Under the pieces are notes generated by a model. The model was not told the DNA's origin, searched no databases, and saw only the letters and a list, made by a program, of their open reading frames with translations. The translations under genes were made by a program, and so were the position numbers. Positions 1-27,655 of a DNA stretch of 64,000 bases are shown piece by piece. The first letter of the stretch is position 1; every line of letters begins with the position of its first letter. Source of the DNA: Escherichia coli (lineage in GTDB: Bacteria > Pseudomonadota > Gammaproteobacteria > Enterobacterales > Enterobacteriaceae); the NCBI RefSeq assembly GCF_024502345.1, contig NZ_JALDNN010000001.1. One strand, written 5' to 3'.

Positions 1-276
1 AGAGTTGATATCACTACAACAGAAACATGCATGTCATTTGTTTACTTCTCTTTTTACTACAGAAAAATTTATCTATTTTTCTAAACATCAGTGAAATACT
101 CATAAAAGGTAACTATTATGTCTATGCCATTAAGCAATGCCCTTCAGAGTCAAATTATTACAGATGATCACTTCCTTCATCACCCAATAGTCGACAGTGA
201 GTTAATACGTAAATATGAACGTACACGCCTGGATACGGAAAATATCTATCTTCTGCCTCTTGTTCGTGGCAATAAC

Positions 277-1333
277 GGCTTTGTTGAATAAATCAGATTT
301 CGGGTAAGTCTCCCCCGTAGCGGGTTGTGTTTTCAGGCAATACGCACGCTTTCAGGCATACCTGCTTTCGTCATTTTGTTCAGCGCTCGTACCAGGGCCA
401 TAGCCTCTGCAACCTGACCATCGTAGTCACGCAGTGTCAGTGAACCCCCGAACAGCTGTTTTACCCGGTACATCGCCGTTTCCGCTATCGAGCGACGGTT
501 GTAATCTGTTGTCCATTTCCACCGCGCATTACTCCCGGTCATTCGCTGATTAGCCACTGCACGGTTACGGTCTGCATATTCACCGGGCCAGTAACCCGCA
601 CCTTTTCGGGGAGGGATAAGCGCGCTGATTTTCTTACGCCGCAGTTCATCGTGACATAGCCGGGTATCGTAAGCGCCATCGGCGGCGGCTGACCTGATTT
701 TCCGGTGGGTTTGCCGGATTAACCCGGGGAAGGCCTCTGAGTCCGTAACGTTGTTCAGCGACAGGTCAGCGCAGATGATTTCATGTGTTTTACTGTCAAC
801 GGCGAGATGCAGCTTACGCCAGATACGGCGGCGTTCCTGGCCATGCTTTTTGACTTTCCACTCGCCTTCACCGAAGACCTTCAGCCCGGTGGAATCAATT
901 ACCAGGTGTGCGATTTCACCCCGGGTGGGCGTTTTGAAACTGACATTAACCGACTTTGCCCGCCTGCTGACACAGCTGTAATCCGGGCAGCGTAGCGGAA
1001 CGTTCATCAGAGAAAAAATGGAATCAATAAAGCCCTGCGCAGCGCGCAGGGTCAGCCTGAATACGCGTTTAATGACCAGCACAGTCGTGATGGCAAGGTC
1101 AGAATAGCGCTGAGGTCTGCCTCGTGAAGAAGGTGTTGCTGACTCATACCAGGCCTGAATAGCTTCATCATCCAGCCAGAAAGTTATGGAGCCACGGTTG
1201 ATGAGGGCTTTATTGTAGGTGGGCCAGTTGGTGATTTTGAACTTTTGCTTTGCCACGGAACGGTCTGCGTTGTCGGGAAGATACGTGATCTGATCCTTCA
1301 ACTCAGCAAAAGTTCGATTTATTCAACAAAGCC
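277..1333 (-). mobile_element. IS903-group insertion sequence (IS5 family), copy 1, 1057 bp
   Basis: 18-bp terminal inverted repeats GGCTTTGTTGAATAAATC at 277..294 and its reverse complement at 1316..1333; single transposase ORF inside; ends match the IS903 ends known from Tn903. No flanking 9-bp direct repeat (ggcaataac vs cccttgccg). Confidence 0.9.
333..1301 (-). CDS. IS903-type DDE transposase (322 aa)
   Basis: ORF MKDQITYLPDNADRSVAKQKFKITNWPTYNKALINRGS... occupies nearly the whole IS; identical to the protein at 16576..17544. Confidence 0.9.
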   Translation of the reverse strand: MKDQITYLPDNADRSVAKQKFKITNWPTYNKALINRGSITFWLDDEAIQAWYESATPSSRGRPQRYSDLAITTVLVIKRVFRLTLRAAQGFIDSIFSLMNVPLRCPDYSCVSRRAKSVNVSFKTPTRGEIAHLVIDSTGLKVFGEGEWKVKKHGQERRRIWRKLHLAVDSKTHEIICADLSLNNVTDSEAFPGLIRQTHRKIRSAAADGAYDTRLCHDELRRKKISALIPPRKGAGYWPGEYADRNRAVANQRMTGSNARWKWTTDYNRRSIAETAMYRVKQLFGGSLTLRDYDGQVAEAMALVRALNKMTKAGMPESVRIA

Positions 1334-1690
1334 CCTTGCCGCATTACTTAATGCTAATATTGAGTTGGGTAATGACCCAATAATTGGTATAGAAGCCTAT
1401 CCCGGTACCGCGGAGATCCATGCAAAAATGGGATATAAAGTTATCCCGGGTGATGAAAATGCACCACTCAAACGTATGACTCTGCAACCGTCATCTCTTC
1501 CAGAACTGTTTGAATTAAAAAATGGTGAATGGAATTATATTGGTAAATAACTACCAGGAACAATGAGTACTAATATTCAGGTTATACAGATATTTAAACA
1601 ATACCCTGCAATTTACAAAGTAATACTCATTGCGACTTCTTAATTTAAGAAAGCGCAAGGAACGTTTACCCTTGCGCTTATTATAATAAG

Positions 1691-2464
1691 TCAGGCGTCG
1701 ACTTTATCCAGCGGCCATGAATCAAACAGATAGCCATCAAAATAAATATCGTCAACGTTCGAGAATTCCAGCAGACGTTGCTTAACGTTTTCCAGATGCT
1801 GCCACATTGCCAGCTTCGCCGCTCGGGCATCTTTTTTGATTAACGCGGCGAGGATCTGTTTGTGATCGCCCAACCACTCTTTGCGATACAGGCTGTCATC
1901 CAGATGGCTGTGCAACTGGATCCACATTGGATTGTTTTCCCGCCACTGCCAGGACTGACGGAACAGCTCCACCAGCATGCTGTTATGCGTTGCTTCGGCA
2001 ATAGCGAGATGGAACTGCATGTCACCGCTTTCGCTGCTGCCCGGCGCACTGGAAGCCAGTTCACACTCTTCCAGTTGCAATGCCTGACGCATTTTGACGA
2101 TATCTTCGCGGGTAGCCTGCAAAGCGGCAAACTCGGCGATGTTGCTCTCCAATAACTGCCGCGCCTGTAACAGCTCAAAAGGACCGGCATCGTTGCAGAC
2201 GTTGGCATCCGGACTGTCTGTGTTCTGGCTGCCTGAGTTATCAAGAACATAGATACCGGCACCCCGGCGTACTTCCACCAGCCCTTTGATCTCCAGCATG
2301 ATCAGCGCTTCACGTACCACCGTCCGCGTGACATCAAGCATTTCTGCAATTTCACGCTCCGGCGGCAGCCGTTCGCCAGGGTTGTACGGCGTCTTTATGA
2401 TCAGATCGCGGATCATCGCCCCGACTTCCTGGTAAGGTCTTTGCGCAGAGGTGGCAGATTTCAT
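1691..2464 (-). CDS. uxuR: GntR-family repressor of the hexuronate regulon, UxuR (257 aa)
   Basis: Translation MKSATSAQRPYQEVGAMIRDLIIKTPYNPGERLPP... recognised as E. coli UxuR; sits downstream of uxuAB. Confidence 0.9.
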   Translation of the reverse strand: MKSATSAQRPYQEVGAMIRDLIIKTPYNPGERLPPEREIAEMLDVTRTVVREALIMLEIKGLVEVRRGAGIYVLDNSGSQNTDSPDANVCNDAGPFELLQARQLLESNIAEFAALQATREDIVKMRQALQLEECELASSAPGSSESGDMQFHLAIAEATHNSMLVELFRQSWQWRENNPMWIQLHSHLDDSLYRKEWLGDHKQILAALIKKDARAAKLAMWQHLENVKQRLLEFSNVDDIYFDGYLFDSWPLDKVDA

Positions 2465-2500
2465 GGTGTTGTGTCCGTTAGGTGCGGTTAATCAAATTTT

Positions 2501-2540
2501 TGCCGGATGCGGCGTGAACGCCTTATCCGGCCTACAACGG
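2501..2540. repeat. REP element between uxuR and uxuB
   Basis: tgccggatgcggcgtgaacgccttatccggcctac matches the E. coli REP consensus. Confidence 0.6.
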
Positions 2541-2678
2541 GCAATTTTACGGCCCCCGTTAATCTCAAACTATACCATTAGCACTGGAAGTTGGCACGTA
2601 CAGGTGGGCAAAAAAACGAAAACTGGTCAACCAAATATCAGTTTGATTGACCAGTAAGTCTGTAGGGTAATCAGTTAG

Positions 2679-4139
2679 TTACAGCGCAGCCACACACTCG
2701 CGCGCACCGCGTTCGCACAGCTGCTGATATGCCGCCGTCACTGCGCCAACAAAGTCGGCATTCTGCGGCAGATCATCGGCAAAAATACCGCTCAGGCCCA
2801 GCAGCGCTTTCACACGGTCTGCGCCCTGATACTGCGCGTTGATCTTCTGGAACTCCGCCAGCATCGGGTCGACCACGTCAATGGCATTACCCTGCTCATC
2901 CACGCCCTGGGTGTAACGCATCCAGCCAGCCACGCCCAGCGCCAGGTGACGCCAGCTGCCGCCGTTTTGCAGGTGCAGACGCACCGGGTCCAGCAGACGC
3001 TGCGGTAACTTCTGGCTGCCGTCCATCGCAATCTGCCAGGTACGGTGACGCAGAGACGGGTTGCTGAAACGCTCGATCAGCAACGTCGCATAGGCGTTCA
3101 GGTCCGTACCTTCCGGCATCGACAGCGTTGGCGCTTGTTCCTGCATCATCAGGGAGAAGGCCGCTTTGCGATAATCCGGGTTAGTCATGGTGTCGGCAAT
3201 AGTTTCATAGCCGCCGAGGTAACCGAGGTATGCCAGGAAAGAGTGGCTGCCGTTCAGCATACGCAGCTTCATCATTTCGAACGGCACAACGTCTGCAACG
3301 AACTGTGCGCCCACTTTATCCCAGTCCGGACGACCATTAACGAAGTTATCTTCAATCACCCACTGACGGAACGGTTCGCAGGCAATGGCGCACGGGTCGT
3401 AAACACCCAGCTGGTCAGCAATTTCCTGTAAGGTTTCTGGCGTCGCCGCCGGAACGATGCGGTCAACCATGGTGCACGGGAAGGTGACGTTCTCTTCAAT
3501 CCATGCCGCTAGCTGCGCGTCACGCGCCTGAGCCAGCCCCAGTACCGCGACCTTCGCCACATGACCGTTTTCACGCACGTTATCGCAGGACATCACCGTA
3601 AATGCTTTCAGCCCTTTTTCACGACGCAGACGCAAGGCTTCGACGATGTAACCAATCGCGGACTTCGGCGCAGTTGGGTTTTCCAGATCGTGCTTGATCA
3701 GCGGGTTATTGAGATCCAGTTGACCGCTTGCCGCATCAGCGCAGTAGCCTTTTTCCGTGACCGTTAGAGAGACAATCGCCGTTTGCGGACGCGCCATCGC
3801 GTTGAGAATACCTTCGCAGCCATCGATTTCCGGATGCAGCGCTTCTTTCATCGAACCGATAATTTTCAGCTCGGTGCTCTCTGCGCCTTTTTCCGCTACG
3901 GTGTACAGCAGTTGCTGTTTTTTCAGGTTTTCGATCAGCACGCGGTCGTTGCCTGGCATCAGGTTAACTTCGCAGATGCCCCAGTCGCTGTCGGTGCTTT
4001 CCAGCAGATGATGGGTATACAGCGCCTGGTGCGCGCGGTGAAACGCCCCGCAACCGAGATGCACAATGCGTGATTCCAGACGAGAATGATCCCATGACGG
4101 GCGGGCAACCGGCAGATTGCTGTCAACAATAGTAGTCAT
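2679..4139 (-). CDS. uxuB: D-mannonate oxidoreductase UxuB (486 aa)
   Basis: 486-aa ORF immediately downstream of uxuA, same strand; sequence recognised as UxuB. Confidence 0.9.
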   Translation of the reverse strand: MTTIVDSNLPVARPSWDHSRLESRIVHLGCGAFHRAHQALYTHHLLESTDSDWGICEVNLMPGNDRVLIENLKKQQLLYTVAEKGAESTELKIIGSMKEALHPEIDGCEGILNAMARPQTAIVSLTVTEKGYCADAASGQLDLNNPLIKHDLENPTAPKSAIGYIVEALRLRREKGLKAFTVMSCDNVRENGHVAKVAVLGLAQARDAQLAAWIEENVTFPCTMVDRIVPAATPETLQEIADQLGVYDPCAIACEPFRQWVIEDNFVNGRPDWDKVGAQFVADVVPFEMMKLRMLNGSHSFLAYLGYLGGYETIADTMTNPDYRKAAFSLMMQEQAPTLSMPEGTDLNAYATLLIERFSNPSLRHRTWQIAMDGSQKLPQRLLDPVRLHLQNGGSWRHLALGVAGWMRYTQGVDEQGNAIDVVDPMLAEFQKINAQYQGADRVKALLGLSGIFADDLPQNADFVGAVTAAYQQLCERGARECVAAL

Positions 4140-4219
4140 CGTAAACTCCAGAATCCGTCTTCAAAGAGTGACGGCAAGGAAGAAGGAACCGGCACGGCGC
4201 GCAGCCATGCCGGTGGATA

Positions 4220-5404
4220 TTAACGGCTAAAGAAAGCGCGCTGGATCGCCAGTTCGACACCGCGAACTTCGGCCAGGCCTTTCAGACGACCAATTGCGGA
4301 GTAACCTGGGTTGGTTTTCTTCTTCAGGTCGTCCAGCATCTGATGACCGTGGTCCGGACGCATCGGGATCAGGTCTTCTTTGCCTTCCGCTTTACGACGG
4401 TGTTCTTCTTCAACAATCGCTTTCACCACTTCGTACATATCAACGTCACCGTTCAGGTGCGCCGCTTCGTGGAAGGTTTTCGGGTTATCTTCACGCATGG
4501 TGGAGCGCAGATGGGTGAAGTAAATACGCGGACCGAACTGCTTGATCATATCAACCAGATCGTTGTCAGCACGCACGCCGTAGGAACCGGTGCACATGGT
4601 AAAACCGTTTGCCATGCTGTTTACGGTATCAACCATCCACTGCATATCTTCAATGGTGGAAACAATGCGCGGCAGGCCGAGGATCGGGCGCGGCGGATCG
4701 TCCGGGTGAACAGCCATACGCACGCCAACTTCTTCGGCAACCGGAATAATCGCTTTCAGGAAGACGGCAAAGTTTTCGCGCAGTTTGGCTTTGTCGATAT
4801 CTTTGTACAGCTCCAGGTGTTTACGGAACTGGTCGAGGGTGTAGCCTTCTTCCGCGCCCGGAAGACCAGCAATGATGTTACGGGTCAGACGCGCTTTGTC
4901 TTCGTCGCTCATAGTGGCGAAGCGAACAGCAGCCTGAGCAATTTCTTCTTCGGTGTAATCCGCTTCCGCGCCTGGACGTTTCAGGATATGCATTTCGAAT
5001 GCAGCGAATTCGATCTGGTCGAAGCGCAGCGCTTTGGAGCCGTCTGGCAGCACGTATTCGAGGTCAGTACGGGTCCAGTCGAGCACCGGCATGAAGTTGT
5101 AGCACACGGTGCGAATGCCACACTGCGCCAGGTTGCGCAGAGTCTGCTGATAGTTAGCGATCCACTGCTCATAGTTGCCAGTGTGGGTTTTGATATCTTC
5201 GTGAATTGGTACGCTTTCTACGACAGACCACACCAGGCCTGCGTCTTCAACGATCGCCTTGCGTTTGAGGATCTCTTCTACGGACCATACTTCGCCGTTC
5301 GGGATATGGTGCAGCGCGGTAACCACGCCAGTTGCGCCCGCCTGACGGACATCAGCTAAAGAAACCGGATCGTTTGGGCCGTACCAGCGCCAGGTCTGTT
5401 CCAT
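4220..5404 (-). CDS. uxuA: Mannonate dehydratase UxuA (394 aa)
   Basis: ORF contains [28 protein letters not shown]...; start set to the internal ATG at 5404, preceded by gaaagaggaaaaatc (Shine-Dalgarno). Confidence 0.9.
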
Positions 5405-5564
5405 GATTTTTCCTCTTTCACATAGTGGGTTCCACAGCAAAGAGACGCGGAACCCTGGAGTTGTTTAGGTATCCGGATGAACAACCAGACCGCAGCCGTG
5501 GCGTTGCATCGGATGAGATGGCGTATAAGTTCTACCTTTTGGTAAGACATGTCAACCCGAATTC

Positions 5565-5582
5565 TGAAATTGGTTAACCACA
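5565..5582. promoter_or_regulatory. Putative UxuR/ExuR operator upstream of uxuA
   Basis: aaattggttaaccaca contains the perfect palindrome tggttaacca and resembles the AAATTGGT..ACCAATTT hexuronate operator consensus; lies ~160 bp upstream of uxuA. Confidence 0.4.
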
Positions 5583-5741
5583 TCACAAGAATTTCACTCT
5601 CCTGGTTGTTGCTGCAAATTGCAGCAAAAGGTTATCGATGGTTATTGATCAGAGGATGTGACATTCATCGCAACAATGGTTGACCAATTTACATAACATG
5701 TCGCCCAAAATAACAACGGTTCAACCAGGTAAGGTAAAACG

Positions 5742-5947
5742 TTATGCATGTGCTTAACATTCTCTGGGTAGTATTCGGTATCGGCCTGATGCTGGTACTG
5801 ACAAAGACCGCAGGTTCAGACACATTCGCTGCATTAGCAATGCCTCTTAGATAATTTTGACCTGTCAGTAAAAGACACGTTGAAAACCTGGGGTCTGCTG
5901 GAGCTGGTCAACTCCGTGGTTGGGCTGATTATTAGCAAGGTAGCGTA
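5742..5947 (+). pseudogene. gntP: Remnant of gluconate-family permease gene (gntP position): N-terminal ~36 codons plus C-terminal ~30 codons, internal ~1.1 kb missing
   Basis: ORF MHVLNILWVVFGIGLMLVL... hits a stop after 36 codons; a different frame ends ...[25 protein letters not shown] at 5947; both look like the ends of a GntP-type permease divergent from uxuA. Assignment is from recall and synteny. Confidence 0.4.
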
Positions 5948-5949
5948 AA

Positions 5950-6120
5950 AGAACACCAGAGCCTGCCAATGGCAGGCTCTGACTGATGACAAAGTCTAAA
6001 AATGTGCCCGGACAGTCCCCTCGCCCCTCCGGGGAGAGGGTTAGGGTGAGGGGAACAGACCAGCAAAGTGCGCTTTGTTTATGCCAGATGCGACGCTGAC
6101 GCGTCTTATCTGGCCTACAA
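5950..6120. repeat. Intergenic repeat cluster: terminator-like hairpin, GC-rich BoxC-like palindrome, and REP
   Basis: agagcctgccaatggcaggctct hairpin; cccctcgcccctccggggagagggttagggtgagggg; gccagatgcgacgctgacgcgtcttatctggcctac (REP). Confidence 0.5.
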
Positions 6121-6264
6121 AGGGCTAACGTGCAGGTTTTTAGCTTCAGGTAATATTGCGTAACTGCATTAGCAATGCCCTGTGATTTCTTTATTGATAA
6201 ACAAAAGTCGGTGATGCTGCCAACTTACTGATTTAGTGTATGATGGTGTTTTTGAGGTGCTCCA

Positions 6265-6540
6265 GTGGCTTCTGTTTCTATCAGCTGTCCCTCCTGTTCA
6301 GCTACTGACGGGGTGGTGCGTAACGGCAAAAGCACCGCCGGACATCAGCGCTATCTCTGCTCTCACTGCCGTAAAACATGGCAACTGCAGTTCACTTACA
6401 CCGCTTCTCAACCCGGTACGCACCAGAAAATCATTGATATGGCCATGAATGGCGTTGGATGCCGGGCAACCGCCCGCATTATGGGCGTTGGCCTCAACAC
6501 GATTTTCCGCCATTTAAAAAACTCAGGCCGCAGTCGGTAA
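6265..6540 (+). CDS. insA: IS1 InsA (91 aa)
   Basis: [40 protein letters not shown]... recognised as IS1 InsA. Confidence 0.9.
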
Positions 6541-6962
6541 CCTCGCGCATACAGCCGGGCAGTGACGTCATCGTCTGCGCGGAAATGGACGAACAGTGGG
6601 GATACGTCGGGGCTAAATCGCGCCAGCGCTGGCTGTTTTACGCGTATGACAGGCTCCGGAAGACGGTTGTTGCGCACGTATTCGGTGAACGCACTATGGC
6701 GACGCTGGGGCGTCTTATGAGCCTGCTGTCACCCTTTGACGTGGTGATATGGATGACGGATGGCTGGCCGCTGTATGAATCCCGCCTGAAGGGAAAGCTG
6801 CACGTAATCAGCAAGCGATATACGCAGCGAATTGAGCGGCATAACCTGAATCTGAGGCAGCACCTGGCACGGCTGGGACGGAAGTCGCTGTCGTTCTCAA
6901 AATCGGTGGAGCTGCATGACAAAGTCATCGGGCATTATCTGAACATAAAACACTATCAATAA
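6459..6962 (+). CDS. insB: IS1 InsB (167 aa; normally expressed as InsAB' by frameshifting)
   Basis: 167-aa ORF overlapping insA within IS1. Confidence 0.85.
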
Positions 6963-6977
6963 GTTGGAGTCATTACC

Positions 6978-7415
6978 GATTATGTAATCGCCTAAACTCT
7001 TTGATAGCCGACGTTTCAAGCAACATGGATTTGCCTGAATTTAAAGCAGCCATTAATTTATCAAGGGACTGTGCGAACTTACCTGCTGGGTCTGTCGGTG
7101 TATCACGTGTTGTCGAAACAAAATGATAGATGTACATTTCATCTTCATGCTTCGTATTAATGTAAGTAAGATGAATAGCAACCGCATACGCAGGGCCACC
7201 GGACTCACTAAATTCATCACCAACAATTAAGAAATCACCAAAACCATTCATACCCTCTTCTTCATAATTAAGATGAAGATCTGAAAAGAACTCAGAATCG
7301 GGATGGTCAGCATTTCGTCTTTTTTCAAAGCCATCTTTAATTAAAATTCTTTCTGAACCCGAAAAATGTTTTCGATAAGCTTTAGAACAATAGTTAGAAA
7401 TAAATACATGTTTGT
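6978..7415 (-). pseudogene. Partner gene B, C-terminal segment (separated from the N-terminal segment by IS3; 3' end cut by IS1)
   Basis: ORF ...HVFISNYCSKAYRKHFSGSERILIKDGFEKRRNADHPDSEFF...EFRRLHNR is in frame with segment 8674..9082 once IS3 and one TGT copy are removed; the last codon and the stop codon lie inside the IS1 terminus (6973..6977). Confidence 0.7.
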
Positions 7416-7445
7416 TGATCCTACCCACGTAATATGGACACAGAC

Positions 7446-8312
7446 CTAAGCGAGGTTCTGGTTTTCAAATTGTTCCGGACTGAGGCCGCCACACCAACTG
7501 TGCCGCCGCCACCGATTGTAATCACATTCGATATAATTAAACACCGTTGCCCGCATTATTTCCCGGCTGATAAAGTGTTCTCCATGGATACATTCCACTT
7601 TCAGCGAATGAAAGAAGCTTTCCACGCAGGCATTATCGTAGCAGCAACCTTTTGCGCTCATACTTCCACGCAGATTATGCCGCTTCAGTTGCGCCTGATA
7701 ATCTGCTGAACAGTACTGGCCTCCACGGTCCGTGTGAACGATAACGTTCCGGGGCCTCTTACGCCGCCACAGCGCCATCTGCAGGGCATCGCAGGCCAGT
7801 TGCGCCGTCATGCGTGGCGACATTGACCAGCCAATAACGGCACGTGACCACAGGTCAATGACCACTGCCAGATACAGCCAGCCTTCATCTGTACGTAAGT
7901 ACGTGATGTCTCCTGCCCACTTCTGGTTCGGGCCACTGGCGTAAAAATCCTGCTCCAACAGATTTTCTGACACAGGCAGGCCGTGTGCGCGGTAGCTGAC
8001 CGGGCTGAACTTCCGGGAGGCCTTTGCCCTCAGTCCCTGACGGCGCAGGCTTGCCGCCACGGTTTTTACGTTAAAGGGGTAACCCTGAGCACGCAGTTCA
8101 TCCGTCAGGCGTGGGGCACCGTAACGCTGTTTTGACCGGGTAAAAGCCGCGAGGACAACGCTGTCGCAGTGTTGGCGGAACTGCTGACGCGTGCTTATCC
8201 TTGTCCGCCGCTGACACCACGTATACCAGCCGCTGCGGGCCACCCGGAGCACGCGGCACATTGCTTTGATGCTGAACTCAGCCTGATGTTTTTCAATAAA
8301 GACATACTTCAT
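7446..8312 (-). CDS. insF: IS3 transposase OrfB / InsF (288 aa)
   Basis: [36 protein letters not shown]... recognised as IS3 InsF with integrase-core motifs. Confidence 0.9.
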
Positions 8313-8608
8313 TTCAGGCGCTTCGCGAAGTATGTCGCGGCCTTTTGGAGGATAGCCAGCTCTTCATCCCGTTCTGCCAGCTGGCGTTTGAGACGTGCAA
8401 TCTCGGTAGACATCTCCAGTTCACGTTCAGAAGACGTCTGCTGATTTTGCTGTTTACTGCGCCAGTTGTAGAGCTGTGATTCATACAGGCTGAGTTCACG
8501 GGCTGCGGCAGTAACACCGATGCGTTCAGCAAGCTTCAGGGCTTCACTGCGAAATTCAGGCGAATGCTGTTTACGGGGTTTTTTACTGGTTGATACTGTT
8601 TTTGTCAT
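8309..8608 (-). CDS. insE: IS3 OrfA / InsE (99 aa)
   Basis: ORF contains [32 protein letters not shown]...; start set at the MTKTV methionine. Confidence 0.85.
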
Positions 8609-8673
8609 GTGAGTCACCTCTGACTGAGAGTTTACTCACTTAGCCGCGTGTCCACTATTGCTGGGTAAGATCA

Positions 8674-9082
8674 TGTATCCATCCCCAAATCTTTCATGTA
8701 AAGCTTTTGGCTCATCAAACCCGGCATGAATAAAGGTGACTTCATGAACGAGATCTGAATGAAGGAGATTATCAACCTTAGCAATAGTCATACTCTTATC
8801 AAGAAGTATTCCTACAGAAATTTTTTCATACTTACTAAATTCATTTTTTAATAATTGAGCTATACTTTGTCCATCGGTAGAGTGATCACCACATGCCGGA
8901 TTAATGATGACAATAGCCCTACCATCATTTTCTTTTATTGTTTTCAGTGTTCGCTCAAGACCATTGAGAGCCTCTCTCACAGGCTCTATAATTGGAGTAA
9001 AACCTGCCTCAGCCATTACATTAGCAGTGTCTCTAATAGCCAACAGTTCAAATTGTTTCCCACGAAAATAAGGATAATACAT
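8674..9082 (-). pseudogene. Partner gene B, N-terminal segment (136 codons) interrupted by IS3
   Basis: MYYPYFRGKQFELLAIRDTANVMAEAGFTPIIEPVREALNGLERTLK...HERFGDGY then reads into the IS3 end; starts 6 nt after the stop of gene A on the same strand. Confidence 0.7.
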
Positions 9083-9088
9083 AGTTTG

Positions 9089-17920: not shown

Positions 17921-18730
17921 CTAGAAAGAGCCGAGTTCAGAAATCGGTATGTTGAGGAGATGGCTGTTTTTGCTGATAAAGTATTCGAGACTACGGGTTG
18001 TTTCTCCATTCAATGACTTCTCTGCAACAGGCCTGTCTGTATCTTTAATGTGATCTTCTCCTCTGATCTCACTTGTAAAGTCGGGATACAAGACACGAGA
18101 CAGGACCATATTTGAGATTTTTACTTTTTTAAATTTTGCCCAAATCAATAGATCCATCATTGGGATAATATTGTAATCGACAAGTTTTCTTATCTTTGCC
18201 AGTCCAATTTTTTCTGTTTTTACTGGCTCAATTTCATATTCTTTCCTGAGAATGGGTAGCATCGTTTGTAAGGCTGTTATAATTTCTTCATCGCTAGACA
18301 TTCCTAAATCAAATGAAACATACATCTTGCTGCTATTTTGGTTAAGAAAAAAGTCTCTCATAGTTTTTGTTATTGGTTTATTTTTCAACTCTTTTTTGAA
18401 ATCACCATTTTCTTCAAAAAAATCCATGCTAAACATTATTAACTTGTTCTCTAATTTTTTTATATCACCAAAGCTAACCTGAGCAACATGTCTTTGGCCC
18501 TTGCCAAAATGGCCATGATTATTATCTTGTCTGCTTAAAATAGGATTACCTTCAAGGATAGACCTTAAATTTTGATTATCATCTTCCCATCCAAAATTTA
18601 CACTGTCGAAAATCGCTTCTCTAAAGGCAAGCTCGGTATGCAGTTCTTTGATTGTAAGTGATTTTAACTGCTCATAGCTTTCGAGACTAAACCAGATTTT
18701 TAATTCTTCATAAGGGCTTACTACTTTCAT
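17921..18730 (-). CDS. Hypothetical protein (269 aa), AT-rich island cargo between integrase and alpA
   Basis: ORF MKVVSPYEELKIWFSLESYEQLKSLTIKELHTELAFREAIF...; strong Shine-Dalgarno (aggaggg) before the ATG; no recognisable motif. Confidence 0.6.
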   Translation of the reverse strand: MKVVSPYEELKIWFSLESYEQLKSLTIKELHTELAFREAIFDSVNFGWEDDNQNLRSILEGNPILSRQDNNHGHFGKGQRHVAQVSFGDIKKLENKLIMFSMDFFEENGDFKKELKNKPITKTMRDFFLNQNSSKMYVSFDLGMSSDEEIITALQTMLPILRKEYEIEPVKTEKIGLAKIRKLVDYNIIPMMDLLIWAKFKKVKISNMVLSRVLYPDFTSEIRGEDHIKDTDRPVAEKSLNGETTRSLEYFISKNSHLLNIPISELGSF

Positions 18731-18841
18731 TAATCCCTCCTCTGTATTCGAAGCTTGAATGAGTTAACACTGCTTATTTGAATTAATTCTCCCTTAACAA
18801 GGTTGATAAGGGAGAACGATTAATTAACTACTTATTCATAG

Positions 18842-20092
18842 TTAAGTCTTTTTAAAATCAAATGGTGAAACTTGTCGTATTCTAAGGAGGTCAAGGTAAT
18901 CGGCCCACCACTGCAACATAAGCTTTCTCTCATCAAGGTGCTCTGCTTTATGTATGTAGGCAGCACGAACTGAGTTCCGCTCCTGATGGCTCATTTGCCG
19001 TTCAACAGCATCTTTCGACCACAAGCCGGATTCAATCAAGGCACTACAAGCCATAGCCCTGAATCCATGTCCACAGACCTCCACGGTTGTGTCATAGCCC
19101 ATAGACCTCAAAGCCTTGTTTACCGTATTTTCACTCATAGGCTTTCTGAAATCATGGTCGCCAATGAACACAAGTTCATGGTCACCGCTGATCTCTTTAA
19201 TTTCCATCAACACAGCCAATGCCTGACAACTCAAAGGAACAAGGTGTGGAGTTCGCATTTTCGAACCACGGTGCGAATGTTTCACTCCGGGTAATGGCTC
19301 TCGCTCTGCAGGAATAGTCCACATAGCATTCTCTAAATCGATTTCCGACCATCTTGCGAATCTGAGTTCACTGGAACGAATGAAAATGAGCAATGTCAGC
19401 TTTACGGCTAACTTCGTGAGTTTTCTACCCTTGAAACTATCAATTCGTTCTAAAAGTTCTGAGAATCGTTCGAATGGCAAAGCTGGCCTGTGGACTCTTT
19501 TAGCTACCGCAATAGCTCCTGCCATCTCCTGGGCAGGGTTGTAATCTATCAGACCATTCTGGACAGCATATCTCATTACTGCCGTTGTTCTTTGCTGTAA
19601 TCGGGAAGCAACTTCCAGTCGCCCAGAAGCTTCAACAGCTTTGATAGGGGCAAGAAGATCTCTGGTATTAAGTTCGGATATTTTTCTTTTACCAATAGCA
19701 GTAAAGAGACCATCTTCCATGCTTTTTAGAACTCTTTCGCTGTGGGAATTTGACCATTTCCTTTTACAGGCAGTATGCCAGTCTCTCGCAACAGCTTCGA
19801 ATGTCAGGGCTTCGCTTTGCTCAATCTTATCTGCTTTTTTCTTCTCAGAAGGGTCGATACCATCAGATACCAACTTTTTGGCTTCATCTCGCTTCCTGCG
19901 GGCTTCACCAAGAGAGACCATTGGATAAACACCTAATGCTAAAACTTTCTGCTTGCCCCCGAAACGGTATTGGAGTCGCCAGTATTTTGAACCATTGGGG
20001 TTGATCAGCAGGTGCATACCCTGCCCATCTGTGAGTTTGAAAGGTTTGTCGGAGGGCTTGGTAGTCCTAACTTTGATATCAGTGAGTGCCAT
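18842..20092 (-). CDS. P4-like tyrosine integrase (416 aa)
   Basis: MALTDIKVRTTKPSDKPFKLTDGQGMHLLINPNGSKYWRLQYRFGGKQKVLALGVYP... is the typical P4-family integrase N-terminus, with catalytic-domain R...H..R...Y pattern toward the C-terminus; adjacent to the 3' end of leuX. Confidence 0.85.
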   Translation of the reverse strand: MALTDIKVRTTKPSDKPFKLTDGQGMHLLINPNGSKYWRLQYRFGGKQKVLALGVYPMVSLGEARRKRDEAKKLVSDGIDPSEKKKADKIEQSEALTFEAVARDWHTACKRKWSNSHSERVLKSMEDGLFTAIGKRKISELNTRDLLAPIKAVEASGRLEVASRLQQRTTAVMRYAVQNGLIDYNPAQEMAGAIAVAKRVHRPALPFERFSELLERIDSFKGRKLTKLAVKLTLLIFIRSSELRFARWSEIDLENAMWTIPAEREPLPGVKHSHRGSKMRTPHLVPLSCQALAVLMEIKEISGDHELVFIGDHDFRKPMSENTVNKALRSMGYDTTVEVCGHGFRAMACSALIESGLWSKDAVERQMSHQERNSVRAAYIHKAEHLDERKLMLQWWADYLDLLRIRQVSPFDFKKT

Positions 20093-20281: not shown

Positions 20282-20366
20282 TGGTGCCGAAGGCCGGACT
20301 CGAACCGGCACGTATTTCTACGGTTGATTTTGAATCAACTGCGTCTACCGATTTCGCCACTTCGGC
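20282..20366 (-). tRNA. leuX: tRNA-Leu (anticodon CAA), leuX
   Basis: Reverse complement reads GCCGAAGTGGCGAAATCGGTAGACGCAGTTGATTCAAAATCAACCGTAGAAATACGTGCCGGTTCGAGTCCGGCCTTCGGCACCA (85 nt with CCA). Confidence 0.95.
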
Positions 20367-20561: not shown

Positions 20562-21581
20562 ATGTCGATGATAAAAAGCTATGCCGCAAAAGAAGCGGGT
20601 GGAGAACTGGAAGTTTATGAGTACGATCCCGGTGAACTGAAGCCACAAGATGTTGAAGTGCAGGTGGATTACTGCGGGATCTGTCATTCCGATCTGTCAA
20701 TGATCGATAACGAATGGGGATTTTCACAATATCCACTGGTTGCCGGGCATGAGGTGATTGGGCGCGTGGTGGCGCTCGGGAGCGCCGCGCAGGATAAAGG
20801 TTTGCAGGTCGGTCAGCGTGTCGGGATTGGCTGGACGGCGCGTAGCTGCGGGCATTGCGATGCCTGTATTAGCGGTAATCAGATCAACTGTGAGCAAGGT
20901 GCGGTGCCGACGATTATGAATCGCGGCGGTTTTGCCGAGAAGTTGCGTGCAGACTGGCAATGGGTGATTCCACTGCCAGAAAATATTGATATCGAGTCCG
21001 CCGGGCCGCTGCTGTGTGGTGGTATCACGGTCTTTAAACCACTGTTGATGCACCATGTCACTGCTACCAGCCGCGTTGGGGTAATTGGTATTGGCGGGCT
21101 GGGGCATATCGCTATAAAACTTCTGCACGCAATGGGATGCGAGGTGACAGCCTTTAGTTCGAATCCGGCGAAAGAGCAGGAAGTACTGGCGATGGGTGCC
21201 GATAAAGTGGTGAATAGCCGCGATCCGCAGGCACTGAAAACTCTGGCGGGGCAGTTTGATCTCATTATCAATACTGTGAACGTCAGCCTCGACTGGCAGC
21301 CTTATTTTGAGGCGCTGACCTATGGCGGTAATTTCCATACGGTCGGTGCGGTACTCACGCCGCTGTCTGTTCCGGCCTTTACGTTAATTGCGGGCGACCG
21401 CAGCGTCTCTGGTTCAGCAACCGGCACACCTTATGAGCTGCGTAAGCTGATGCGCTTTGCCGCCCGCAGCAAGGTTGCGCCGACCACCGAACTGTTCCCG
21501 ATGTCGAAAATAAACGACGCCATCCAGCATGTACGCGATGGTAAAGCGCGCTACCGCGTGGTCCTGAAAGCCGACTTCTGA
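20562..21581 (+). CDS. ahr: NADPH-dependent aldehyde reductase Ahr/YjgB (339 aa)
   Basis: [45 protein letters not shown]... zinc-ADH signature; start set at the internal ATG at 20562. Confidence 0.9.
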
Positions 21582-21710
21582 TCCCTTTGCCGGGTGCCTG
21601 TCGCCCGGCACTTAAATCTCTTTGGAAGGCGTCTCGCAATCTGCTGAATTTAGCGGTGAAGAGTGCGCAGCCGTTGCCTATACTCCAGGCAGGAAACTGG
21701 AGGATATCTC

Positions 21711-23213
21711 ATGAGCGAACCCCTGTTAATTGCCCGCACGCCGGACACAGAACTGTTTTTAATGCCGGGAATGGCTAACCGTCACGGGCTGATTACTGGC
21801 GCAACGGGGACGGGTAAAACCGTTACGCTGCAAAAACTGGCAGAGTCATTGTCGGAAATCGGCGTGCCGGTGTTTATGGCTGATGTGAAAGGCGATCTGA
21901 CCGGCATCGCGCAGGCAGGAACGGCATCGGAAAAACTGCTCGCAAGGCTTAAAAATATCGGCGTAAATGACTGGCAACCGCATGCCAATCCGGTGGTGAT
22001 GTGGGATATCTTTGGCGAGAAAGGCCATCCGGTGCGGGCGACGGTTTCAGACCTGGGGCCGCTGTTGCTGGCGCGTTTGTTGAATCTCAACGATGTGCAA
22101 TCTGGCGTCCTGAATATCATCTTCCGCATTGCTGACGATCAGGGGCTGTTACTGCTCGACTTTAAAGATTTGCGGGCGATTACCCAGTACATCGGCGATA
22201 ACGCCAAATCTTTCCAGAATCAGTACGGTAATATCAGTAGCGCATCGGTTGGTGCCATCCAGCGCGGATTACTGTCGCTGGAGCAACAAGGTGCGGCGCA
22301 TTTCTTTGGCGAGCCGATGCTGGATATCAAAGACTGGATGCGCACCGATGCCAACGGTAAAGGCGTTATCAATATCCTCAGCGCCGAGAAACTTTATCAG
22401 ATGCCGAAACTGTACGCCGCCAGCCTGCTGTGGATGCTTTCAGAGTTGTATGAACAATTGCCGGAAGCGGGCGATCTGGAGAAACCAAAACTGGTGTTTT
22501 TCTTCGACGAGGCACATCTGCTGTTTAACGATGCCCCGCAGGTACTGCTGGATAAGATTGAGCAGGTGATAAGGCTTATTCGCTCAAAAGGCGTGGGCGT
22601 CTGGTTCGTTTCGCAAAACCCGTCTGATATTCCAGATAATGTGCTCGGCCAGCTCGGTAATCGCGTTCAACACGCTTTGCGGGCTTTTACGCCAAAAGAT
22701 CAGAAAGCAGTGAAGGCAGCGGCGCAAACCATGCGGGCCAATCCGGCATTTGATACGGAAAAGGCAATCCAGGAACTGGGGACCGGCGAGGCGTTAATCT
22801 CGTTTCTCGATGCAAAAGGAAGTCCTTCTGTGGTGGAACGGGCGATGGTGATTGCGCCTTGTTCGCGGATGGGGCCGGTGACGGAAGATGAGCGTAATGG
22901 CTTGATTAATCACTCTCCGGTGTATGGCAAGTACGAGGATGACGTGGACCGGGAATCCGCCTATGAGATGTTGCAAAAAGGCGTACAGGCAAGCACCGAG
23001 CAGCAAAATAATCCTGCCGTGAAAAGGAAAGAGGTAGCGGTAGATGACGGCATTCTTGGTGGATTGAAGGATATTTTGTTTGGCACTACCGGACCACGCG
23101 GCGGGAAGAAAGATGGTGTTGTGCAAACAATGGCGAAAAGCGCCGCCCGCCAGGTGACGAATCAGATTGTGCGTGGAATGTTGGGGAGTTTGCTGGGGGG
23201 GAGAAAAAGGTAA
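21711..23213 (+). CDS. yjgR: HerA-like ATPase, DUF853-family protein YjgR (500 aa)
   Basis: [39 protein letters not shown]... with Walker A motif GTGKT; start at the ATG after ggagg. Confidence 0.85.
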
Positions 23214-23233
23214 GCCAGGTGCGATTTGTCTTT

Positions 23234-23270
23234 GCCTGATGCGACGCTGGCGCGTCTTATCATGCCTACA
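23234..23270. repeat. REP element
   Basis: gcctgatgcgacgctggcgcgtcttatcatgcctac. Confidence 0.55.
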
Positions 23271-23373: not shown

Positions 23374-24456
23374 TTACGATTTTCTCATTAACAGCCACAG
23401 GCTGATTAAGAAGAAGCTGGCGCTTGGCAACAGTGCGCCAATGATCGGCGGGATGCCGTAAACCAACGTCAGCGGACCGAAGATCTGGTCCAGTACGTAG
23501 AAGACAAAACCGAAGCTGATACCGGTGACCACACGCACGCCCATCGGTACGCTACGCAGTGGGCCAAAGATGAACGACAGCGCCATCAGCATCATCACCG
23601 CCACGGATAGCGGCTGGAAGATTTTGCTCCACATGTTGAGCTGATAACGTCCGGCATCCTGACCGCTCGACTTCAGATACTTCACGTAGTTGTGCAAACC
23701 GCTGATTGAGAGTGCATCCGGGTCCAGCGCCACCACGCCCAGTTTGTCTGGCGTGAGGTTGGTTTTCCAGGTGCCGCTCACCGTCTGCGAACCGGTAATC
23801 TGTTTCGGATTGGTCAGATCAGATTCATCAACCTGCGACAGACGCCAGACTTTATGTTCCGGGTCAAACTTCGCAGTAGCGGCATAGCGTACGGATTGCA
23901 GACGACGATTTTCGTTAAAGGCATAAATGCTGATGCCACCTAACTCTTCGTCACCTTTAACCCGCTCAATGTAAACGAAGTTGTTGCCATCTTTCGCCCA
24001 TAAGCCTTGCTGGGTAGAGAGCAACGAGCCGCCGTACATCGCCTGCGCACGGTAGTTACGCGCCATCTGCTCGCCCTGCGGCGCGACCCATTCACCAATC
24101 GCCATCGTCAGCAAGACCAGCGGAATGGCGGTTTTCATCACCGACAGCGCAACCTGCATACGGGTGAAACCAGAAGCCTGCATCACCACCAGTTCGCTGC
24201 GCTGCGCCAGCATCCCAAGACCAAGCAACGCCCCAAGCAGAGCCGCCATCGGGAAGAATATTTGCACATCTTTCGGCACGCTCAGCAAGGTATACATTCC
24301 TGCGCCTAACGCGTCGTAACTCCCCTGCCCGGCTTTTTTCAGCTGATCGACAAATTTGATAATGCCCGACAGCGACACCAGCATGAACAGCGTCATCATG
24401 ATGGTGGTGAAAATAGTTTTACCGATATAGCGGTCAAGTACGCCAAAAGGTTGCAT
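23374..24456 (-). CDS. lptG: LPS export permease LptG
   Basis: MQPFGVLDRYIGKTIFTTIMMTLFMLVSLSGIIKFVDQLKK... recognised as LptG; overlaps the lptF stop. Confidence 0.9.
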   Translation of the reverse strand: MQPFGVLDRYIGKTIFTTIMMTLFMLVSLSGIIKFVDQLKKAGQGSYDALGAGMYTLLSVPKDVQIFFPMAALLGALLGLGMLAQRSELVVMQASGFTRMQVALSVMKTAIPLVLLTMAIGEWVAPQGEQMARNYRAQAMYGGSLLSTQQGLWAKDGNNFVYIERVKGDEELGGISIYAFNENRRLQSVRYAATAKFDPEHKVWRLSQVDESDLTNPKQITGSQTVSGTWKTNLTPDKLGVVALDPDALSISGLHNYVKYLKSSGQDAGRYQLNMWSKIFQPLSVAVMMLMALSFIFGPLRSVPMGVRVVTGISFGFVFYVLDQIFGPLTLVYGIPPIIGALLPSASFFLISLWLLMRKS

Positions 24457-27334: not shown

Positions 27335-27344
27335 TTGCGTCAGG

Positions 27345-27655
<311 letters not shown>

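Follow-up and report, generated by a model that had tools for sequence, protein, structure and literature searches.

The idnK and idnDOTR genes of Escherichia coli (GntII; L-idonate and 5-ketogluconate) form an already recognised accessory cluster. In the annotated genome of K-12 MG1655, idnK, idnD, idnO, idnT and idnR are located between ahr and yjgR, within a chromosomal neighbourhood that runs leuX, ahr, yjgR, lptG, lptF, pepA, holC and valS. The first gene of the cluster, idnK, is convergent with ahr and is followed by idnD, idnO, idnT and idnR. In ST131, idnK was not detected in H30 and H22 and was present in H41 (PMC5369007); idn genes were found in 83% of pks+ genomes as against about 31% of pks− genomes (PMC8545132), and GO terms for L-idonate catabolism were enriched in HUS-associated STEC (PMC4216125). 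Here, we report on the ahr-yjgR locus in a 64-kb stretch of E. coli DNA, hereafter the window, in which the two genes are directly adjacent. The locus is well known to vary in the presence of idn, and the window harbours its common empty-site allele. With high probability the interval is an ordinary spacer between two genes on an E. coli chromosome with the idn-less ahr-yjgR allele, one of two old alleles of which the empty form is most likely the original. The initial annotation of this DNA had described the locus as a known variable one that is noted for strain typing. The literature agrees with the first part, in that idn is treated as accessory, but our literature search found no paper in which the ahr-yjgR junction serves strain typing.

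The gene order around the locus in the window is leuX, ahr, yjgR, lptG, lptF and pepA, with a P4-type integrase gene beyond leuX, and this neighbourhood is the K-12 one in reversed orientation. The tRNA-Leu(CAA) gene leuX (20282..20366, minus strand) was identified by ARAGORN, by the Rfam tRNA model (59.4 bits) and by the K-12 annotation. The ahr gene (20562..21581, plus strand) encodes an NADPH-dependent aldehyde reductase of 339 aa that scores 553.6 bits against the NCBIfam AldhRedAhr equivalog NF047908, for which the cutoff is 470. The yjgR gene (21711..23213, plus strand), with its ATG at 21711, encodes a P-loop ATPase of 500 aa with a HerA-like C-terminal domain (DUF853; Pfam HerA_C, E = 1.4e-254). 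In matching genomes the RefSeq names 'ahr' and 'yjgR' lie under the respective matches. Both genes being on the plus strand, the interval 21582..21710 is their exact intergenic spacer; it measures 129 bp, which agrees with the separation of some 130 bp first given, and the MG1655 annotation likewise bears out the original placement of idnK/idnDOTR between the two genes in K-12. Just 3' of yjgR, at 23233-23265, lies a REP-like element with a partial naRNA4 match (E = 0.022, below the gathering threshold), and this element explains the many extra places per genome returned by BLAST.

The alignment to MG1655 that had been named as a check on the initial annotation was carried out and delimits the two alleles precisely. 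It matches up to the ahr stop codon, ends exactly there (21581) and is taken up again at 21672, with 39 bp left to the yjgR ATG. The TGA at 21579-21581 is thus the left-hand breakpoint of the polymorphism, and 90 bp of the window take the place of an idn segment of 5,087 bp in K-12. The spacer of the window (21582..21710, plus strand), defined from its sequence as the idn-less or empty-site allele, opens with the 12-mer TCCCTTTGCCGG (21582..21593, plus strand). When alleles were compared, this 12-mer was found in idn+ alleles, as TCTCTTTGCCGG, at the end of the cassette that is remote from ahr and faces yjgR. The sequence TCTCTTTGCCGG follows the TGA in O157:H7 and 88-3493, and in K-12 and CFT073 it stands just before ACGTTGCCTATACT; in general form, the motif TC(C/T)CTTTGCCGG is found behind the stop codon of ahr when idn is missing and at the cassette's yjgR-side end when idn is present. 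Chance is an unlikely explanation for the identity of a 12-mer at these two junction positions, and its location at the yjgR-side end places the cassette immediately after the ahr stop codon. Remnants of idn were also sought in the 90 bp and the idea was rejected, as a short-word blastn search against the K-12 segment gave matches at chance level except for the 9-12-mer CTTTGCCGG at the right end of the cassette, which we interpret as displaced target sequence and not as an idn remnant.

The next 78 bp (21594..21671, plus strand) are specific to idn-less alleles. They are not found in the K-12 segment, they align with sequences from E. albertii, Citrobacter werkmanii and Enterobacter cloacae, and they are missing from every idn+ allele examined, where a single A occupies their place. 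The segment includes the 3' half of a hairpin and a block, CTTTGGAAGGCGTCTCGCAATCTGCTGAATTTAGCGGTGAAGAGTGC, that is conserved as far as Citrobacter and, in part, Enterobacter. The remaining 39 bp (21672..21710, plus strand), recognised from the alignment to K-12, are common to idn+ and idn− alleles and show almost no variation in any of the E. coli, E. albertii or Citrobacter sequences. The K-12 locus is organised identically to the window over these last 39 bp before the yjgR ATG, whereas it lacks both the 3' half of the hairpin and the conserved block of the 78 bp that the window has.

All counts of the two allelic states were made in a collection of 5,426 complete E. coli genomes. In 3,211-3,212 of these (59%) ahr and yjgR are contiguous with a spacer of the type found in the window, while the idn cassette is present in 2,055 (38%). 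At least 80% of the cassette is present in 2,038 genomes, the ahr-idnK-idnD junction likewise in 2,038, and about 159 genomes (about 3%) have no match to the 3' end of ahr. Where the position of idn was checked it was the ahr-yjgR locus, and the two equal counts, compared as totals, are consistent with idn always being positioned there. Strains without idn include O157:H7, O145 and B2 strains such as SF-088, and those with idn include K-12, B, CFT073 and NCTC86. K-12 thus displays the minority form at this locus and the window its commonest state. The absence of idn that was first noted therefore stands insofar as the cassette is missing between the two genes in comparison with K-12, but it is an absence relative to K-12 only, the idn-less state being that of the majority. 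A deletion restricted to idnK, as suggested by the report of ST131 genomes with idnK absent and other gluconate genes present (PMC5369007), was considered and rejected, because the matches listed show either the full ahr-idnK-idnD junction or the ahr end only; the other gluconate genes scored as present in that report are probably paralogue matches.

Some genomes depart from both arrangements. The roughly 159 genomes without the ahr 3' end represent a third state of the locus. One of them, STS63-1-E, keeps only a frameshifted pseudogene stub of ahr (8746-9078 of the extracted locus), and homology of its spacer to the window starts only at TCGCAATC. In E. coli MLI104K2 (NZ_CP116925.1) the ahr-yjgR interval of about 850 bp (8990-9830 of the extracted locus) is annotated with a LacI pseudogene and a hypothetical protein. 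This interval resembled an idn allele in decay, with part of an idnR pseudogene, but that reading was dismissed, since the interval is made up of long poly-C and poly-G runs; an artefact of assembly or polishing in a RefSeq 'complete' genome is almost certain. Finally, E. coli proteins of 556 aa (P0071, P0073) combine a LacI HTH domain with HerA_C, and look like idnR'-yjgR fusions that would have arisen by internal deletion in some idn+ strains.

The arrangement in the window could in principle have been generated by a fresh deletion, in the recent ancestry of the strain, which stripped a chromosome like that of K-12 of its idn cassette. The cassette does sit exactly at the ahr-yjgR site in K-12 and in 38% of E. 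coli, and other deletions at the locus exist, as illustrated by the roughly 159 genomes without the ahr 3' end and by the ahr stub of STS63-1-E. However, the 78 bp at 21594-21671 are in the window and in no idn+ allele examined, and the empty form is therefore not obtainable from those alleles by deletion. The spacer is furthermore only 1-3 nt away from the spacers of five unrelated E. coli strains without idn, recurs in contiguous form in 3,211 genomes and is 6.2% diverged from that of E. albertii, all of which speaks against a recent origin. In a search with 521 bp, the non-adjacent matches listed all start at query position 293, except that of an ahr-deleted strain, and the junctions show no flanking direct repeats. 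A fresh deletion is accordingly judged very unlikely. That the idn genes have been relocated, either elsewhere on the chromosome or to a plasmid, is extremely unlikely. Nothing direct favours relocation, the nearest indication being that the cassette occurs in other genomic contexts in other genera. Against it, the 64-kb window contains no idn DNA, with no match in a blastn comparison with the K-12 cassette, and a tblastn search of the same 64 kb with the idn proteins returned only distant paralogues of 21-33% identity elsewhere in the window. Across the 5,426 complete E. coli genomes, moreover, idn matches were never on plasmids, their median was one place per genome, and the count of cassettes equalled that of junctions (2,038); the collection offers no precedent for idn at another site.

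The comparison was extended beyond E. coli with YjgR as query against one representative genome per species, which yielded a handful of outgroup genomes among the matches listed. Within these, the E. albertii representative NBRC 107761 has an empty site with a spacer of 129 bp, and the Citrobacter werkmanii representative has a homologous empty spacer of about 136 bp. Citrobacter sp. FP75, on the other hand, carries idnK-idnDOTR at the ahr-yjgR site, with junctions homologous to the E. coli ones. Between K-12 and FP75 the cassette DNA is 79% identical, as compared with 91-94% for the flanking Ahr and YjgR proteins, and because the cassettes are only 79% identical the idn+ allele must be regarded as old as well. 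In Enterobacter cloacae DSM 26481 ahr and yjgR flank the site as in the window and part of the yjgR-proximal conserved sequence is kept, but the interval between the two genes, free of any insert in the window, is occupied there by a Dak1/Dak2 dihydroxyacetone-kinase-like gene on the opposite strand (548 aa; 8217-9863 of the extracted locus). The ahr-yjgR site has thus been used by different cargo across genera.

The idn module is also found away from this site. Trabulsiella odontotermitis (3980-8999) and Mangrovibacter yixingensis (3955-8999 of the extracted loci), whose loci were reached via close IdnR orthologues, harbour a complete idnK-idnD-idnO-idnT-idnR in the order and orientation of K-12. 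Their modules are 70-76% identical to K-12 at the DNA level and reside in unrelated contexts without ahr or yjgR, with the homology to K-12 stopping at the idnR stop codon. Found in unrelated contexts, idn behaves as a transferable module that moves as a unit. The cassette lacks the marks of an integrative mobile element or a genomic island: according to the K-12 annotation it contains only idnK, idnD, idnO, idnT and idnR, without integrase or transposase, and direct repeats were not seen at its junctions in K-12, CFT073 and FP75. Exchange by flanking homologous recombination fits better. A Salmonella 'IdnR' match (P0075, 56% identity) was rejected as an idn orthologue on account of its unrelated, nar-linked context. 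Carriage of idn by Salmonella at the ahr-yjgR site is accordingly not used as evidence here.

Each allele has sequence that is missing from the other, and either polarity requires two events, a change of the cassette and a change of the 78 bp. Taking together the varied contexts of the module, the recurrence of ahr-yjgR adjacency across genera and the 78 bp, we infer that the empty allele is more likely the original. The locus has two old alleles. In the empty one, the ahr stop codon is followed by a likely terminator hairpin and a conserved yjgR upstream region, and this uninterrupted form most likely represents the original arrangement. In the occupied one, an idnK/idnDOTR module of ~5.1 kb stands directly behind the ahr TGA, and the spacer lacks 78 bp. 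On this reading strains change from one state to the other by homologous recombination in ahr and yjgR, and not by fresh deletion.

Comparison of strain 2A (idn−) with CFT073 (idn+) is instructive in this regard. The two are near-identical through leuX and ahr, save that 6 positions differ within the final 70 bp of ahr, and differences are dense over the initial ~400 bp of the common yjgR-side sequence, which starts 39 bp before the ATG. This pattern is what allele replacement by homologous recombination with crossovers nearby leaves behind. We also considered whether flank alleles sort by idn state and found that they do not, 2A (−) and CFT073 (+) being 99.3% identical in ahr and O157 (−) and K-12 (+) 97.9% identical in yjgR. 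The pairwise identity of ahr and yjgR within E. coli is 92-98%, and that of lptG (23374-24456) is 97.6-99.5%. Over the 2.9 kb of ahr-yjgR the best match of the window to a complete genome is 97.1%, as against 99.4% for the adjoining lptG-valS, and the lack of any closer match over the 2.9 kb is explained by ahr and yjgR being generally hypervariable. The ahr-yjgR region looks like a diversity or recombination hot zone beside the leuX island site and the idn polymorphism.

Within these variable flanks the spacer itself is strongly conserved. Compared with the idn-less strains O157:H7 TX 265-1, SF-088, 88-3493, EC7072022BGR and 2A, the spacer of the window shows 1-3 nucleotide differences (0.8-2.3% divergence, 97-99% identity), and compared with E. 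albertii 8 of the 129 positions differ (6.2%; about 94% identity). These strains and E. albertii NBRC 107761 share with the window the length of 129 bp, the hairpin, the conserved blocks and the breakpoints, and differ from it by few point differences. Among idn− E. coli the divergence of the spacer is 1.65% versus about 11% at flanking third-codon positions; between E. coli and E. albertii it is 5.8% versus 26-27%. The spacer is 5-7 times less diverged than the flanking third-codon positions, a degree of conservation that fits the presence of an ahr terminator and a yjgR control region.

A terminator-like hairpin had been noted in the spacer from the outset, and folding does recover a stable GC-rich hairpin at 21588..21610 (plus strand), with stem arms UGCCGGGUG and CGCCCGGCA and the loop CCUGU. 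It starts 7 nt after the TGA, comprises a 9-bp stem and a 5-nt loop, and has a dG of −16.7 kcal/mol; 0 of 200 shuffles fold as well (z = −3.76). A consensus scan also reports a terminator-like site, at 21592-21613, drawn slightly differently from the hairpin. The tail that follows, CTTAAATCTCTTT (21611-21623), is only moderately T-rich, and under a lenient scan criterion, at least 5 T in 8, the tail CUUAAAUCUCUUU qualifies only if the stem is shifted; no U run in it exceeds 3. At the equivalent position E. albertii folds into a hairpin of −17.9 kcal/mol. C. werkmanii has one there too, whose stem differs in part of its sequence; its centroid energy is −17.4 kcal/mol, and the stretch is not distinct from shuffles (z = −1.30). 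Judged by its position and stability, the hairpin is likely to be the intrinsic terminator of ahr, although its U-tract is poor. When a 150-nt stretch spanning the spacer was folded as a whole it was not unusually structured compared with shuffles (z = −0.43), and only the terminator hairpin stood out. Rfam, searched at a permissive E-value, likewise gave nothing in the spacer, its matches being leuX and weak REP-like or sRNA-like ones 3' of yjgR.

The yjgR-proximal part of the spacer holds several candidate signals. A −10-like TATACT is found at 21679-21684, within the 39 bp common to both alleles; a sigma-70 scan of the plus strand of the spacer returned no promoter passing the threshold, and the −35 paired with this TATACT by eye (GTGAAG) has only 3 of 6 positions. 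A stem formed by CTCCAG and CTGGAG (21683-21688 and 21697-21702) overlaps the Shine-Dalgarno sequence of yjgR, GGAGG (21699-21703). Both the MFE and the centroid folds contain this stem, which hardly varies between alleles of E. coli, E. albertii and Citrobacter whether or not they carry idn, making translational control of yjgR through it possible.

Further upstream, the block CTTTGGAAGGCGTCTCGCAATCTGCTGAATTTAGCGGTGAAGAGTGC within the 78 bp is a candidate control region for yjgR. Sigma-54 promoters have the core TGGCAC-N5-TTGC, with invariant GG and GC. The element TGGAAG-N5-TCGCA (21623..21638, plus strand) shows the GG-N10-GC spacing of a −24/−12 (sigma-54-type) element, and this conserved spacing, a weak lead, is kept in E. 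albertii, in C. werkmanii (TGGAAT-N5-TCGCA) and in E. cloacae (TGGATA-N5-CCGCA). Against this general consensus, rather than a curated model, 3 of its 10 core positions mismatch, and it is not counted here as a member of that class. It is conceivable, if rather doubtful, that the 78 bp encode a distinct element through which yjgR is controlled in idn-less strains only; a sigma-54-type promoter, an operator and a small RNA would be examples. In favour of such an element are the strong purifying selection on the spacer, the two short blocks kept across genera at fixed spacing (TGGA-N9-CGCAA), and the lack of the 78 bp in all idn+ alleles examined, in which yjgR is instead situated 77 bp 3' of the co-oriented idnDOTR operon. 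The spacer has no Rfam match, however, nor was an activator site identified, and a −24/−12-like motif with 3 mismatches in 10 core positions is of a quality that is common by chance. We tentatively raise the prospect that the 78 bp may hold a conserved control element for yjgR, of the −24/−12 promoter type or an operator, which would have been lost in K-12 and all idn+ strains.

Other parts of the window also deviate from complete E. coli genomes. Between the uxu/gntP region and leuX, at approximately 7446-20092, there is a mosaic and apparently decayed island. This island near leuX includes an IS3-type transposase (7446-8312), a type I methyltransferase fragment of 267 aa (12451-13254), an autotransporter of 1,062 aa (13318-16506), a DDE transposase (16576-17544), a DUF6387 protein (17921-18730) and the P4-type integrase (18842-20092), as well as two proteins without a Pfam family. 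When positions 1-20300 of the window were compared with the complete E. coli genomes, none covered more than 37% in one place. On the other side of the locus, the pepA-holC spacer (27340-27635) harbours a 96-bp tandem repeat in 3.1 copies with 94% matches, whose unit has REP-like palindromes; the window appears to have one copy more than K-12 MG1655.

The strain is predicted to be devoid of the GntII pathway and unable to grow on L-idonate, and the use of 5-ketogluconate via GntII would also be lost; its yjgR is expected to be expressed from its own upstream region. Carriage of idn has been reported to correlate with pks+ ExPEC and with HUS-associated STEC. Beyond bookkeeping, the significance of the window allele is very small. 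The present analysis goes further than the initial annotation in three ways. At this locus it is K-12 that shows the rarer state; the empty allele is not obtainable from the K-12 form by deletion; and the empty spacer is strongly constrained, with sequence upstream of yjgR that studies in K-12 can never have examined. Should the 78 bp indeed contain a control element, regulation of the HerA-like ATPase YjgR in about 59% of E. coli would not be that of K-12, whose yjgR may be reached by read-through from idnDOTR, and regulatory maps based on K-12 would miss the difference.
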